Positions 10,544 to 59,371 are shown, counted from the stretch's first letter. The stretch is DNA of 64,000 nt from a virus (IMGVR_UViG_3300047483_000490:1-64000), one strand, 5' to 3'. Numbers and translations are program-made. The notes: generated by a model from the letters alone, not told the origin.

Positions 10544-11974
10544 ATGAACTTAGTAGACGCTTTAAGACAAGAAGACATTTTAACAGAAAATGGTATGGCA
10601 ACTAATTCAACTTCGTTGAATGCATGTGTCGATTTATTTTTTAACATTGGTGCAATGAGAGGCCAAGACAAACAACGTTTGATCGCAACCTTTTCGAAAG
10701 CATTTAATGAAGATCCGAAGCGTGCTATGAAACTTTTGTTTTGGGCCAGAGATGTTAGAGGTGGTGCAGGTGAACGTCAAGTCTTCAAAGATATTTTAGT
10801 TTACTTAGCTGAAACTCATGATTTGGCTTTAAAACCAAACTTAGGCTTAATTGCAGAGTATGGTCGTTTTGATGACTTACTAACTTTAGTAGGAACTTAT
10901 TTAGAAAATGATGCTTTGCAAATTATTGCAGATGCTCTTAAATCTGAAAATGGTTTATGTGCAAAATGGATGCCACGTAAAGGTCAAGTAGCTGAAAAGT
11001 TACGTGCATTCTTGAAATTGTCACCAAAACAATATCGTAAAACTTTAGTTAATTTAACTAACGTTGTTGAAACTAAAATGTGTGCTAAAGAATGGGATTC
11101 TATTGAATTCGGTAAATTACCATCAGTGGCTTCAGCACGATACCAAAAAGCTTTCGGTAAAAATGCTTACGAAAGTTATTCAGCTTATATCCAATCCTTA
11201 GTGAAAGGTGAAGCTAAGATTAATGCAGGCGCAGTTTATCCTTATGATGTTGTAAAATCATTAACACACGGAAATGCAGCAGTAGCAAACGAACAATGGA
11301 AAGCCCTTCCAAATTACTTAGAAGGAGCAAACGATATGATTTTACCAGTGGTAGATGTTTCTGGTTCTATGTCTTGCTCTGCAGGAGGTAGTAAAACAGT
11401 AACATGTATGGATGTTGCAATCTCTTTAGGTCTTTATATTTCTGAAAGAAATGAAGGTCCTTTCAAAGATGCATTTATTACATTTTCAAACAATCCACAG
11501 TTACAAGTACTAAGTGGTTCATTGCAAGATCGCTACGCACAGATGTTATGTTCCGATTGGGGAATGTCAACAAATCTCGAGGCGACCTTCAAGCTGATCT
11601 TAGATCAGGCCACTAAACATAAATTGTCTCAAGACAAGATGCCAAATAAAGTTCTGATCTTGTCAGATATGGAATTTAATGCAGCAACTAGATCTAGCGG
11701 ATGGAGAAATACCGGATCAGATTGGAATCCAACTGCTCAACAAATGATTGAGAAAATGTACGAAGATGCAGGTTACAAAATGCCTCAAATCGTTTATTGG
11801 AACATTCAATCCAGAAATGGTGGAGTGCCAGTAGCATTTGACAAAGCAGGAACTGCATTAGTGTCAGGATTCTCTCCAGCAATTATGACAAGTTTACTTG
11901 GAGGAGATATTGAGTCTCCACAACAAATCATGGATAAAACAATCTTGAGCGAGAGATACGCTCCAATTGTTTAA
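10544..11974 (+). CDS. Ro60/TROVE-like vWA-domain protein (DUF2828-type)
   Basis: TENG N-terminus, RDVRGGAGER, EYGRFDDL, AKWMPR, vWA MIDAS DVSGSM and LSDMEF, VYWN, SGFS. Confidence 0.85.
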   Translation: MNLVDALRQEDILTENGMATNSTSLNACVDLFFNIGAMRGQDKQRLIATFSKAFNEDPKRAMKLLFWARDVRGGAGERQVFKDILVYLAETHDLALKPNLGLIAEYGRFDDLLTLVGTYLENDALQIIADALKSENGLCAKWMPRKGQVAEKLRAFLKLSPKQYRKTLVNLTNVVETKMCAKEWDSIEFGKLPSVASARYQKAFGKNAYESYSAYIQSLVKGEAKINAGAVYPYDVVKSLTHGNAAVANEQWKALPNYLEGANDMILPVVDVSGSMSCSAGGSKTVTCMDVAISLGLYISERNEGPFKDAFITFSNNPQLQVLSGSLQDRYAQMLCSDWGMSTNLEATFKLILDQATKHKLSQDKMPNKVLILSDMEFNAATRSSGWRNTGSDWNPTAQQMIEKMYEDAGYKMPQIVYWNIQSRNGGVPVAFDKAGTALVSGFSPAIMTSLLGGDIESPQQIMDKTILSERYAPIV

Positions 11975-11990
11975 GATATATAAAGAAAAT

Positions 11991-12048
11991 TGGTTCCTTA
12001 CAGCAAACTATAAAAAGCAATCACTTAACTAGCAAACGATTGGAACCA
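11991..12048 (+). ncRNA. CAGCAA-motif small RNA A (Y-RNA-like candidate)
   Basis: tggttcc/ggaacca terminal helix followed by tta-cagcaa; 17 nt after the TROVE-like gene. Confidence 0.65.
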
Positions 12049-12051
12049 GGT

Positions 12052-12297
12052 GGATCGGTACAGCAAAAAGTACACACACAACTATGACAAATCTGAACAA
12101 CAGCGGAGCCAGTGGTTAGTCCCGGCATTGAAGCTGCAGATACGGTGAAGGTTAACACTAGAAAATGGACCGCCAGTCATACCACCCCAACAGGCGCAAG
12201 TAGGATGTAGTCGAAGTATAGTAGACTCTCGCGAAAGCTAAGCCGAAGACTATAAAGAGGGTTATTCTGCCGAGAAGAAAATCACGAACAACGATCC
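12052..12297 (+). ncRNA. CAGCAA-motif RNA B (long, multibranch)
   Basis: ggatcg/cgatcc terminal helix + gta-cagcaa; GC-rich internal helices. Confidence 0.6.
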
Positions 12298-12308
12298 CGT
12301 TATAATTT

Positions 12309-12338
12309 AATCCAGGCCCGTAAGCCTGGATTTTTTTT
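12309..12338 (+). terminator. intrinsic terminator
   Basis: aatccaggc-ccgtaa-gcctggatt + U tract. Confidence 0.85.
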
Positions 12339-12414
12339 GTAAAAAATATACGTAATTATTTTTTTATGTCAAAAAGATTTTGTATATTAGCCTTATAATT
12401 AAAACACCAAGATT

Positions 12415-13861: not shown

Positions 13862-14062
13862 ATGACAGATATTAAATTAGATTACAGTAAAATTAGTAAC
13901 GTTCAAGTTGGTGGTGTAGATATGCAAGATTATCCAGATTTCTGCGATGCTTATATTGAATCAGCAGATTACGGAGATCGTGAAATGACTGATGAAGAGT
14001 TAGACATTTTAAATGAAGACGGAGAATTTATCTCTATTAATGCTCACGAAAGTTTATATTAA
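13862..14062 (+). CDS. hypothetical protein (DYPDFCDAYI family)
   Basis: Follows class I promoter. Confidence 0.65.
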   Translation: MTDIKLDYSKISNVQVGGVDMQDYPDFCDAYIESADYGDREMTDEELDILNEDGEFISINAHESLY

Positions 14063-14072
14063 AACAAGAATT

Positions 14073-14738
14073 ATGAAAATAATAGTTAACCCAGGACAAA
14101 GAGTCTTTTTTACTTCAGATACGCATTACAACCATACAAATATTTGTAGAGGTGTTTCTAAGTGGGATGGCGCTAGAGGGACTCGAGATTATGACTCCTT
14201 GAATCAAATGAACATTGACATACAAGACAATATAAATATGTTAGTTATGCCAGATGACATCTTGATTCACTTGGGTGACTGGTCTTTTGGGGGCTTTGAG
14301 TCTATTGTAGAGTTTAGAAACAAACTAAACTGTAAGAACATTCACTTGTTCTTAGGAAATCATGATCATCACATCCTTAACAACAGAGATAACGTGCAAG
14401 ATCTTTTTGCTTCTGTAAATGAGCAAAGAATGGTTACTATTGTTATGCAACCTGAGGTTAAAGGTCAAGCTGCAAAAAGATATAGATTTGTTATGAGTCA
14501 TTATCCTTTAGCTTCTTGGCAAGATATGGGACAAGGTGTTATGCACGTCCATGGTCATATTCATACACCTCACCAATTTAAACTTGGGCCAGGTAAAATG
14601 ATGGATGTTGGACTTGATGGAAACCCTGATTTTCAACCATATACAATTCAACAAGTCTTGAAACTAATAGCAGATAGACCAATACAATCATTATTAAAAC
14701 ACGAGTTCGATCATCATAACGATGCTCAGACTTGCTAA
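14073..14738 (+). CDS. calcineurin-like metallophosphoesterase
   Basis: SDTH, LGD, GNHD, SHYP, HGHIH motifs. Confidence 0.9.
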   Translation: MKIIVNPGQRVFFTSDTHYNHTNICRGVSKWDGARGTRDYDSLNQMNIDIQDNINMLVMPDDILIHLGDWSFGGFESIVEFRNKLNCKNIHLFLGNHDHHILNNRDNVQDLFASVNEQRMVTIVMQPEVKGQAAKRYRFVMSHYPLASWQDMGQGVMHVHGHIHTPHQFKLGPGKMMDVGLDGNPDFQPYTIQQVLKLIADRPIQSLLKHEFDHHNDAQTC

Positions 14739-14748
14739 ATAAACAAAC

Positions 14749-15135
14749 ATGAAAGAATTATTTTTATTAAGAGGTTTACCAGGTTCTGGCAAATCAACAG
14801 TTGCGAAATCTTTAGGTGGAACACATCACGAGGCAGATCATTTCTTTACAAATAAGAAAGGCGAATATAAGTTTGAGGCTGTAAAGCTTTTACAAGCTCA
14901 TAAATATTGCCAATCATCTTGTAAAGAAGACATGGAAAACGGCGAAGAACGTATTGTTATCTCAAACACATTCACACAAGAATGGGAAATGGAAACCTAT
15001 TATACTTTGGCAAAAAAGTATGGTTATATTGTTTATGCTTTAATTGTTGAAAATAGACACAATGGAGTTAACCAACATGGTGTTCCAGCAGAAAAATTAA
15101 AGCAAATGGAAGACAGATTTGAGATACAATTGTAA
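14749..15135 (+). CDS. P-loop kinase (AAA_33, polynucleotide kinase-like)
   Basis: RGLPGSGKST, EAD.FF, SNTFT, HGVP motifs. Confidence 0.85.
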   Translation: MKELFLLRGLPGSGKSTVAKSLGGTHHEADHFFTNKKGEYKFEAVKLLQAHKYCQSSCKEDMENGEERIVISNTFTQEWEMETYYTLAKKYGYIVYALIVENRHNGVNQHGVPAEKLKQMEDRFEIQL

Positions 15136-56526: not shown

Positions 56527-56536
56527 TTAACATATT

Positions 56537-56593
56537 AGGATGCTTCCAGCAAATTTACAAAACTTTATATGGAAAAGCAAAACATAGCATCCT
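56537..56593 (+). ncRNA. CAGCAA-motif small RNA C
   Basis: aggatgct/agcatcct helix + tc-cagcaa. Confidence 0.65.
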
Positions 56594-56668
56594 GTTTTTT
56601 AAAATTTAAGAGTATGGACGGAGCAGCAGAAATTCTAGATAGCAGAAGTCTCAGGTCCTAACTCTCTC

Positions 56669-56741
56669 GGGGCTGTGGTGAAATTGGCTATCATCACAGA
56701 TTTGCATTCTGTAGTTCTCGGATCGTAACCGGGCAGCTCCA
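56669..56741 (+). tRNA. tRNA-Ala(UGC) with atypical T loop
   Basis: G3:U70, acaga-tttgcat-tctgt; T loop atcgtaa. Confidence 0.85.
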
Positions 56742-56832
56742 CTAAAAGACTTACATTAATTTGTAAGTCTTTTTTATTTATATTAATAGGGCTCGATTGC
56801 TATATTCTCCACATTTAATAGATATATAGAAT

Positions 56833-57687: not shown

Positions 57688-57864
57688 ATGCAAAATTTAA
57701 ATCAGATCGAAGAGATTCTTAACTCAATCAAAGAAGACGCAACTAAATTTTTCGAAAAAGGAAACAAAGCAGCTGGAACTAGAGTTCGTAAAGCAATGCA
57801 AGAAATCAAAGCATTAGCGCAAGCAGTTCGTACTGAAGTTTCAGAGAAAAACAAAGAAGCTTAA
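57688..57864 (+). CDS. histone H1-like (Hc1) small nucleoid protein
   Basis: Manual ORF: KFFEKGNKAAGTRVRKAMQEIK..AQ.VR. Confidence 0.8.
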   Translation: MQNLNQIEEILNSIKEDATKFFEKGNKAAGTRVRKAMQEIKALAQAVRTEVSEKNKEA

Positions 57865-57936
57865 TTTTTTTTGAAACAAACACTCTTTATTGAGTATAAA
57901 CTTTACAATTAAATTTTAAAACTAAACAAACACAAA

Positions 57937-58101
57937 ATGAAAAAAGTATTTTTCGCAATCGCAGCTATCGTAGCAACAATCTCAATCGCTTCTTGTGGTA
58001 ATGGAGCAACTTCAAAAACTGAAACTACTGATTCTACAGCAGTTCAAGTTGATTCTACGCAAGTAGACACAGTTAGTGTTGACACTGTAACTGTAAAATA
58101 A
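57937..58101 (+). CDS. small lipoprotein (54 aa)
   Basis: Manual ORF: lipobox IASC, DST/DTV repeats. Confidence 0.75.
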   Translation: MKKVFFAIAAIVATISIASCGNGATSKTETTDSTAVQVDSTQVDTVSVDTVTVK

Positions 58102-58109
58102 ATCATTAA

Positions 58110-58250
58110 AGGTTTCTTACAGCAATTAAAATTCTATAGGAACTGGTATCGAAAGATGTGTAGGTTCGAGTCCTACCTCTCCAACAAATTTTAAAATAAT
58201 TGGAGAGTGGTGAAATTGGTAGACACGCTAGTCAGAAAAAACAGAAACCT
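58110..58250 (+). ncRNA. CAGCAA-motif RNA D carrying circularly permuted tRNA-Leu(UAG)
   Basis: aggtttct/agaaacct helix; order variable arm, T arm, acceptor hairpin, D arm. Confidence 0.8.
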
Positions 58251-58260
58251 GAAAATTATT

Positions 58261-58319
58261 GGAATACCTACAGCAAGCTTACCAAACTTTGACTTTTACT
58301 CAAACCAAATGCGTATTCC
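58261..58319 (+). ncRNA. CAGCAA-motif RNA E carrying tRNA-Lys(UUU)-like anticodon stem-loop
   Basis: ggaatac/gtattcc helix; tttga-cttttac-tcaaa. Confidence 0.7.
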
Positions 58320-58336
58320 GTTAAATTATTTTATAA

Positions 58337-58471
58337 AGGATGGTTCCAGCAACACATACAAATTAGGCTGTTAACCTCGTGGTCGTCGGTTCGAACCCGG
58401 CCTTTGAACACCGCCTTAAGTGGCACGTTCAGAGTAGCTCAGTTGGTAGAGCACGTACAAAAGCCCATCCT
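58337..58471 (+). ncRNA. CAGCAA-motif RNA F carrying circularly permuted tRNA-Asn(GUU)
   Basis: aggatgg/ccatcct helix; agg-ctgttaa-cct, T arm, acceptor hairpin, D arm. Confidence 0.8.
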
Positions 58472-58559
58472 GATAAATTAAAAGTGTGTCTTGGTCCGCT
58501 CTGGCGAAAGTTAACGACAAGGTCCCGGTTGGCAGAAGGCCTCTGATCCAACCCAAAAC

Positions 58560-58634
58560 GCAGCAATGGTATAACGGTTATCACACCGCCTTGCCAAGGC
58601 GGATATCGCAGTTCGATTCTGCGTTGCTGCTCCA
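58560..58634 (+). tRNA. tRNA-Gly(GCC)
   Basis: ccgcc-ttgccaa-ggcgg, U73, CCA. Confidence 0.93.
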
Positions 58635-58827
58635 GTAGATTTTTTAGCGTGGCGTGGATTCAGCAGACTTGTTAAATCTTAAAAGAAACAAGATAAGGTA
58701 ATAAGAATCAAGTTTGACAGTGATTATCTTTGAACAACTGTACTGCTTTGGTGATCGATCGCCCGTTCCCAGTATCGAATGAAAACTCGTAAGGCAAGAT
58801 GCAAAACTGTAGCGCATCACCAAAGTT

Positions 58828-58865
58828 AAAAGGGAACCCGTGCACATGGTTCCCTTTTCTTTTTT
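58828..58865 (+). terminator. intrinsic terminator
   Basis: aaaagggaacc...ggttccctttt + U tract. Confidence 0.8.
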
Positions 58866-58915
58866 AGATGAAACAAATTGACTTAAATAAATATAACAAC
58901 TAAAATATATTTTAT

Positions 58916-59371
58916 ATGCTTAACATTTTCTCATATTGGTACAACTTTCTTAGAGAGTTAAGACTACTTTACAAATACCGCAAAGCTGCATTATCTTTAA
59001 AAACTGAATTAGAATCAGAAGGTTTAAGAGTTGATAATTTAGGTAGAATCTACACAGTTATCAATCTAAAAGAAGAGTTGTTAGCTCAACCAGAATTGAT
59101 GCAGCAATCATATGTTTTAGGTCAATTAGGTCCTTTAACAAACATCTTAATGAAATACGGAATGGCTGATAGTTCATTTCCTGAAATTGAAAAAATCGAA
59201 GGTTCTGCTTCTTATTTGATCATTCTTTGGCCAGAAAGAGATTACGTAGACGTCGGTGAATTTATTACAAGTACAGCTATAACAGTTATTGTAGCATGCG
59301 TTACTTGGTTAGCATTTAAATTTGTACCTTGGGCTTGGGTAATAGCATCAGTACAACAATTTACTGCTTAA
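58916..59371 (+). CDS. hypothetical membrane protein
   Basis: LRVD.LGRIYTVINL; C-terminal TM. Confidence 0.65.
   Translation: MLNIFSYWYNFLRELRLLYKYRKAALSLKTELESEGLRVDNLGRIYTVINLKEELLAQPELMQQSYVLGQLGPLTNILMKYGMADSSFPEIEKIEGSASYLIILWPERDYVDVGEFITSTAITVIVACVTWLAFKFVPWAWVIASVQQFTA

Follow-up and report, generated by a model that had tools for sequence, protein, structure and literature searches.

A tRNA-shaped, putatively Y RNA-like noncoding RNA gene in a tRNA-rich phage and its candidate Ro60-fold partner

What kind of gene lies at positions 58110-58251 (plus strand) of the virus record IMGVR_UViG_3300047483_000490, where the 3' half of a leucine-type tRNA precedes the 5' half? The window analyzed here, 64,000 nucleotides (nt), spans the first 64 kb of an IMG/VR record that measures 79.6 kb and has an estimated completeness of 30%. 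Its G+C content is 32%, its sizeable open reading frames (ORFs) are all on the plus strand, and it holds 17 tRNA genes; its source is a large tRNA-rich phage, of which it is a fragment only. An earlier note, made from the DNA alone, had read the locus as a circularly permuted tRNA-Leu(UAG) opened in the anticodon loop, and took it for either a precursor that matures through ligation and loss of the linker or a Y RNA-like mimic of a cleaved tRNA. As judged from the conservation described below, the gene for a tRNA-shaped RNA at this position is real and beyond chance. It probably specifies a Y-like noncoding RNA of ~140 nt with a terminal handle that would dock on a phage ring protein of the Ro60 fold.

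The RNA, termed unit 1, is 142 nt long and is bounded by a 7-base pair (bp) closing helix (P1), in which AGGUUUC (58110-58116) pairs with GAAACCU (58244-58250), the latter followed by a G at 58251. The handle motif UUACAGCAA (58117-58125) is placed directly beside the 5' strand of P1 and opposite an A-rich strand, and it is predicted to be unpaired. CAGCAA had been assigned to the handle helix in the earlier note; this could not be upheld, the helix being AGGUUUC/GAAACCU. Behind the motif, a variable spacer containing UAG (58137-58139) leads to the connector helix, the former anticodon stem. Here ACUGG (58142-58146) pairs with CUAGU (58228-58232) over 5 bp including one G-U, just as had been proposed, and the A-rich strand follows. 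Between the two connector strands are found a GAAA-capped variable-arm hairpin, AUC-GAAA-GAU (58148-58157), the T arm GUAGG-UUCGAGU-CCUAC (58160-58176), a sealed acceptor hairpin (58177-58207) and a Leu-type D arm, GUG-AAAUUGGUAGA-CAC (58210-58226). RNAfold of the segment gave 8 bp for the acceptor hairpin, CUCUCCAA / 15-nt A/U loop / UUGGAGAG; its 3' strand CUCUCCA(A) occupies 58177-58184, the A/U-rich loop 58185-58199, and the 5' strand (U)UGGAGAG 58200-58207. Every element listed in the earlier note for the two exchanged halves was thus present on the plus strand. By inspection, the junction between connector and closing helix consists of 25 nt opposite 11 nt, and the sole inner helix possible there, UUCU/AGAA, was not conserved. 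On this sequence-derived structure, the elbow of a tRNA is kept, and an anticodon loop and a free CCA end are absent, so the RNA would be unable to be charged or to read codons.

Folding energy was not significant for any of the units (z -1.55 for unit 1, and -1.33, -0.99, and +0.21 for the others), and covariation was therefore used as the basis for the structure. The segment 58050-58700 had no blastn match among GenBank phages. An exact pattern of the acceptor region matched 10 further viral contigs, and a looser one, combining handle motif and T loop, recovered the architecture of unit 1 in at least 113 viral contigs. In an alignment of 19 close relatives (A2), 92.9% of the pair cells held and changes on both sides were seen at 16 of the 30 pairs; none of 500 shuffled alignments reached the observed pairing, and slid alignments gave 35-47%. 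The closing helix exchanged GGUUUC/GAAACC for GGUUCC/GGAACC among these relatives. Connector and acceptor helices also changed on both sides, the connector being paired in 100% of cases with double changes at three of its five pairs. UUACAGCAA was invariant in A2, its letters having been partly fixed by the search pattern, and the variable-arm hairpin was present in 10 and absent in 9 of the 19 relatives.

Model R1, built from the close relatives, matched unit 1 with 157 bits and retrieved 105 matches (85 distinct sequences) in 91 sources. When the 85 sequences were aligned to R1 (A4), 95.4% of the cells were paired, compared with 61.5% after shuffling and at most 48% after sliding, and 29 of the 30 pairs covaried. 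Pairing amounted to 97.4% in the closing helix (helix 1), where all seven pairs covaried, to 98.8% in the T arm (helix 4) and to 98.2% in the D arm (helix 6); the acceptor stem likewise covaried at seven of seven pairs. In Leu-like relatives (including L049, L100, L105, and L109), the acceptor is closed by loops of just 3-4 nt such as GAAA, GUAA, and UUGU, and relatives of a second permuted unit (unit 2, see below) close it with UUCG. The exact acceptor/D-arm pattern of unit 2 matched no viral contig, whereas a shorter pattern did. When 596 Gb of bacterial genomes were scanned, the pattern was matched 51 times, versus ~34 times expected by chance if its 20 bases and 31 spacings are taken into account. 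R1 confirmed just 11 of these loci, mostly on contigs of gut Firmicutes metagenome bins; matches in Flavobacterium were not confirmed by R1, and the scan gave no host assignment.

Unit 1 is not the only RNA of its kind. Six handle RNAs are found in the window, all on the plus strand, three of them having been revealed by a simple search together with R1. Their common design starts with a closing helix (6-9 bp), followed after 1-3 nt by (A)CAGCAA; then come a variable cargo, either a hairpin or a tRNA-like body, and the closing strand. The RNA following unit 1 (58261-58320, 60 nt) has a small hairpin as cargo and consists of GGAAUAC, CUACAGCAA, the hairpin, and GUAUUCC. In relatives it is kept 5-6 nt behind unit 1, and its closing helix covaries (GGAAUAC/GUAUUCC, GGGAUGU/ACAUCCC, and GGGAUAC/GUAUCCC). 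Unit 2 (58338-58472; R1 35.8 bits) carries the second permuted tRNA-like cargo, enclosed by GGAUGG, UUCCAGCAA on one side and CCAUCC, UG on the other. A further small RNA lies upstream of a tRNA-Ala gene at 56536-56596 (GGAUGCU, UCCAGCAA ... AGCAUCC, UG; R1 27.2 bits, E 6e-4). The remaining two are located far from this cluster. One is small (11990-12051; R1 24.5 bits, E 0.0026) and starts 16 nt past the last base of a gene for a Ro60-like protein, an arrangement shared by two related contigs (L146 and L148). It is adjoined by an RNA with a cargo of ~230 nt (12052-12300; GGAUCG, GUACAGCAA ... CGAUCC), behind which a terminator-like hairpin is found at 12303-12330. The large cargo is richer in G+C, has no unusual folding energy, and is conserved in the same two contigs; Rfam returned nothing at gathering score for 11900-12400, including no family for 12052-12300. 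Another R1 match, at 31124-31254, was rejected as a handle RNA because two adjacent tRNA genes meet there.

The gene preceding the two distant handle RNAs (ORF 10544-11974, plus strand) encodes the presumed partner protein. Gene, RNA, RNA, and terminator-like hairpin thus follow each other in this order at 10544-12330. Pfam assigned DUF2828 and a DUF7788/vWA domain with a MIDAS (metal ion-dependent adhesion site), and the protein belongs to PHROG 850, 'RNA-binding protein'. The DxSxS signature of the MIDAS (D271-S273-S275) was invariant over 22 diverse homologues. An AlphaFold model was obtained with a predicted local distance difference test score (pLDDT) of 83 and a predicted template modeling score (pTM) of 0.82. 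The best 12 Foldseek matches of this model were all Ro60 proteins (E 2e-9 to 3e-5). Comparison with Xenopus Ro60 (1yvp_A) gave a Z score of 22.6 and a root mean square deviation of 4.0 A over 416 residues, with the likeness extending along the whole length of the model. The top ten entries of the structure comparison were likewise all Ro60 (Z 22.6-13.4), and the next fold, at 10.2, matched the vWA domain alone. As far as the predicted model goes, the protein is kin to Ro60/TROVE at the level of the fold. A search of the ESM Atlas returned only members of the same DUF2828 family, and no paper was found in the literature on DUF2828 in phages or on an RNA partner of DUF2828.

Two kilobases behind this gene, a phosphoesterase (14013-14738) is followed by a polynucleotide kinase (PNK)-like protein (14749-15135), a P-loop protein of 128 amino acids with weak matches to polynucleotide-kinase and RNA-ligase PHROGs; the two may form a pair that heals RNA ends. 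An RtcB-like ligase is encoded near the ring-protein gene of Listeria phage LP-124.

The RNA and the protein were found to occur together. Among 50 records selected solely for carrying the RNA pattern, 41 encoded DUF7788. The domain was present in all 18 of the RNA-bearing records that were at least 90% complete, and each of the nine records lacking it was estimated to be at most 82% complete. For comparison, the protein family occurs in 711 of 50,697 GenBank phage records (1.4%), under labels such as 'Ro-like RNA binding protein', 'RNA-binding protein', and 'DUF2828'. Around 36 non-redundant genes of the family, to a distance of 700 nt, stem-plus-CAGCAA handles were counted 71 times in sense and 5 times in antisense orientation. 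The average for 59 permuted control motifs near the same genes was 7, and the highest controls were shifted versions of the motif itself. An A preceded CAGCAA in 53 of 70 handles beside Ro60-like genes, the flanks not having been fixed in the search, and a T-loop motif was present in 14 of the 70. Six cultured phages were picked by the protein alone, and in five of them one to three handles were located immediately beside the gene: the Felixounavirus JH2 (host Escherichia), the KVP40-like phage V09 (Vibrio), LP-124 (Listeria), the Lumosvirus mycobacteriophage MsGreen (Mycobacterium), and NCTC12673 (Campylobacter). No tRNA gene is annotated within the 6.4-kb stretch around the gene in JH2 and V09. 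Gene association lends good support to a partnership between handle RNAs and the Ro60-fold protein, a partnership that is putative in biochemical terms.

How do these RNAs compare with known families? Over 57800-59000, Rfam reported nothing at gathering score except a tRNA-Gly. Below that threshold, YrlA (RF02553) matched unit 1 with 14.8 bits and unit 2 with 30.6 bits, the gathering score of 69 not being reached. The layout is shared by YrlA, which tRNA enzymes modify and cut as a substrate (Chen et al. 2014, PMC4201824). In both, a T arm, a loop-closed acceptor stem, and a D arm are mounted on a stem formed by the two ends of the RNA; several RNAs occur in tandem, some without the tRNA module (compare YrlB); and there is an association with a ring protein combining the Ro60 fold with a vWA domain and MIDAS. 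The differences concern the docking motif, GNCGAA/CGAA in YrlA and (U)ACAGCAA in the phage handle, as well as the partner, a TROVE protein for YrlA and, as candidate, the Pfam DUF2828+DUF7788 protein for the handle. In addition, most copies of the phage RNAs reside in phage tRNA clusters, unlike YrlA, and their cargo varies from ~20 to ~230 nt. The Rsr-binding motif of YrlA, GNCGAAN0-1G, is located near the 5' end (PMC4201824). It was absent from 58110-58141 and 58338-58375, where UUACAGCAA and UUCCAGCAA were found instead. A TROVE domain (PF05731) was found neither in the record of the window itself nor in any of the 55 records related to it, of which 18 reach a completeness of 90% or more. 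Because score, Rsr motif, and TROVE neighbor, three of the four family tests, spoke against membership, unit 1 was not filed as YrlA. By analogy, it would work like a YrlA-type Y RNA, and it is not YrlA by classification. The Y RNA-like mimic proposed in the earlier note was borne out to this extent: the weak YrlA matches, the YrlA layout, and the Ro60-fold protein, whose gene is followed immediately by sister handle RNAs, all point that way. A precedent in phages is phiLo, whose Ro60 binds the phage Y-like RNAs Yrl1 and Yrl2 and host PNPase (PMC12135203).

The second resemblance leads to a eukaryote. The Class I RNA family of Rfam (RF01414) matched unit 1 with 24.1 bits (gathering score 41.5), driven by the stem and CUUACAGCAA. 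Dictyostelid Class I RNAs are joined at their ends by a short stem and carry the unpaired CCUUACAGCAA right after its 5' strand, where the phage RNA has C-UUACAGCAA. Ten of the eleven letters of the 11-nt Class I motif recur in unit 1, and CCUACAGCAA is found in the small RNA at 58261. A variable middle and UG(U) after the 3' strand are further common traits, and the sizes of the small phage handle RNAs (57-61 nt) match those of Class I RNAs (42-65 nt). Class I RNAs differ in that they derive from eukaryotic nuclear genes with a promoter element of their own, and no tRNA-like cargo has been reported for them. Unit 1, in turn, is 142 nt long, belongs to a phage genome, and stays below the gathering score, its likeness being one of stem and motif as compared side by side. 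No family in Rfam and no paper in the literature was found on the handle, and none on ACAGCAA in connection with a phage tRNA.

Taken together, these comparisons suggest the following mechanism. A 7-bp helix joins the ends of the RNA and has UUACAGCAA, predicted to be unpaired, next to its 5' strand, and a 5-bp connector bears the upper body of a Leu-type tRNA, with variable hairpin, T arm, D arm, and loop-closed acceptor; both helices and the body are shown by covariation. Closing helix and ACAGCAA probably dock on the ring encoded by ORF 10544-11974 in the way Y RNAs dock on Ro60/Rsr, as the gene association suggests. The tRNA-shaped cargo could then engage proteins that recognize the shape of tRNA. 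In analogy to YrlA, it may be a decoy, or else an adaptor through which the ring recruits an enzyme of this type or a nuclease. More speculatively, the setting might be tRNA damage and repair or counter-defense during infection, because the phosphoesterase and the PNK-like kinase are encoded nearby and RtcB is found near the gene in LP-124.

Several observations weigh against this explanation. Unit 1 lies 46 kb from the Ro60-like gene and is linked with it by the shared handle only. Relatives of unit 2 carry CUGCAA or CCGCAA, so ACAGCAA is not strictly required. On the side of the protein, a sequence profile searched against the PDB reached only E 0.08 (phiLo TROVE). Of the gene loci used for the handle count, 30 are metagenomic and were drawn from records preselected for the RNA. 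Finally, A4 was fitted to the model, a procedure that favors the structure, and tandem-tRNA junctions such as window positions 31124-31254 may be among the weakest rows of this alignment.

Other explanations were weighed against the same evidence. Permuted tRNA genes, which are reportedly found in Cyanidioschyzon merolae and Thermofilum pendens, resemble unit 1 in that the 3' half comes first and the acceptor strands are linked. In those genes the anticodon is conserved, a bulge-helix-bulge is cut by the splicing endonuclease, and the linker is removed by RNase P and tRNase Z. It is very improbable that 58110-58251 is likewise a true circularly permuted tRNA-Leu(UAG) gene whose transcript is ligated or circularized at the anticodon loop, freed of its linker, and used in translation. 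All parts are indeed present in rotated order, 3' half, linker, and 5' half with matching acceptor strands; UAG stands at the anticodon position, an A follows the acceptor strand, and a ligase-type gene and the PNK-like kinase are found in the window. Nevertheless, neither a bulge-helix-bulge nor another known splice or ligation junction was recognized in unit 1. The linker, which should be removable to give a free 5' end and a CCA-ready 3' end, is reduced to 3-4 nt in relatives, and an acceptor sealed by such a loop is no precursor of a CCA end. A conserved anticodon in a re-formed 7-nt loop was not found either: the junction strands vary in length, and the position of UAG was confirmed but not its identity, relatives having other letters. 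The suggestion of a cleaved tRNA, broken where PrrC-type nucleases cut, was likewise not supported, the loop surrounding UAG being unconserved as well. Moreover, the variable arm has been lost in 9 of 19 relatives, the same handle is found on plain hairpins, and ordinary tRNA-Leu(UAG) genes exist in the window at 31114 and 31597. A permuted tRNA gene matured by ligation was rejected on account of the sealed acceptor, the variable anticodon and spacer, the lost variable arm, the shape of the junction, and the hairpin cargo; a literature search yielded no description of permuted tRNAs from bacteriophages. Less credible still is that two tandem tRNA-Leu genes meet here in a decayed junction devoid of function. 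The order of T arm and then D arm can be mimicked where tRNA genes lie in tandem, as at 31124-31254, but here the acceptor strands covary together and the loop between them shrinks to 3-4 nt in relatives. The earlier note had itself named truncated tRNAs with no conserved flanking helix as grounds for giving up its reading; flanking helix and motif are, on the contrary, kept in 85 distinct sequences.

The docking partner is the less certain part. The handle might be recognized by another factor, such as a processing nuclease, a ligase, or an RRM-type protein, and DUF2828 might be near merely as part of a shared tRNA/RNA-metabolism module. This we consider unlikely, though not to be dismissed lightly: many handle RNAs, unit 1 among them, reside in tRNA clusters far from the gene, and the look-alike dictyostelid Class I RNAs are reportedly bound directly by an RRM protein (Kjellin et al. 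2021, PMC7919456). The handles of JH2 and V09, however, flank the gene in stretches free of annotated tRNAs. The co-occurrence in all 18 complete genomes, with a base rate of 1.4%, the strand bias of 71 to 5, and an order of gene, RNA, RNA, and terminator mirroring that of rsr-yrl operons also argue for the ring protein. An ordinary YrlA-type Y RNA serving a canonical TROVE Ro60/Rsr, either of the host or encoded in the remaining 70% of the phage genome, is improbable. YrlA is the best related Rfam match, its layout is identical, and a TROVE gene was found in the control genome, Bacteroides thetaiotaomicron. Yet both scores are far under 69, ACAGCAA replaces the Rsr motif, and TROVE occurred in none of the 56 records, among them the complete 256-kb relative (G050), which has the same elements and carries units 1 and 2. 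Docking of the handle on the DUF2828 ring thus remains the explanation that we prefer.

Some features of the surroundings are recorded here in their own right. Directly upstream of the RNA cluster lie a gene for a histone H1-like Hc1 protein (57688-57864; Pfam E 3e-23), which keeps this position in three relatives (L009, L011, and L016), and a small lipoprotein-like ORF (57937-58101). Between unit 2 and the tRNA-Gly, a conserved element of ~70 nt with two hairpins was noted (58487-58556, starting GUGUCUUGGUCCGCUCUG). The element recurs in eight other contigs, again behind unit 2, has no matching Rfam family, and shows one clear compensatory pair, C-G to U-A; GGUCCGC within it recalls the animal Ro-binding GGUCCGA. 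The tRNA-Ala(UGC) predicted by ARAGORN at 56669-56742, which closely follows the small handle RNA of 56536-56596, is below the Rfam tRNA gathering score; its D arm, GGUGAAAUUGGCUAUCAUC, is Leu-like, and its T region, GGAUCGUAACC, is odd. ARAGORN also predicted the two tRNA-Leu(UAG) genes. That at 31597-31671 measures 75 nt and is devoid of the long variable arm that a Leu tRNA should have, and its neighbor at 31114-31196 is of normal length. A tRNA of 122 nt at 31200-31321 was detected by Rfam (50.5 bits) and missed by ARAGORN. Its anticodon loop appears to hold an insert of ~50 nt starting GAGCAAGC, in which a piece resembling a T loop, GGUUCGAUUCC, and a hairpin resembling a D arm are found; ACAGG/CCUGU, the anticodon stem, is followed by UG and may double as a closing helix.

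For annotation, the handle design implies that 'permuted', 'split', or very long 'tRNAs' of phage clusters may be handle RNAs. In Klebsiella phage KP2025 (PP919962.1; L180 2396-2827), an annotated 'tRNA-Arg' of 432 nt overlaps the start of the DUF2828 gene, and a tRNA finder may here have bridged tRNA-like pieces of handle RNAs. The arrangement of gene and handle in five cultured phages opens the role of a tRNA-like Y RNA to genetics and pulldown experiments. We tentatively consider a still wider picture, doubtful as it is at present: handle RNAs and the DUF2828 ring might form an undescribed ribonucleoprotein in phages of many bacterial phyla, the tRNA-shaped members acting as sealed decoys or adaptors in a contest over tRNA damage, and Class I RNAs might be a eukaryotic version of this handle, with a DUF2828-type protein as a possible binder. 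The Ro60/Y RNA particle has long been studied in RNA surveillance, and its bacterial and phage roles are still obscure. If the interpretation is true, it would have a second, far more widespread phage branch, marked by another docking motif, by a divergent ring protein not connected with TROVE through sequence profiles, and by a modular cargo that in many cases copies the upper part of a tRNA.
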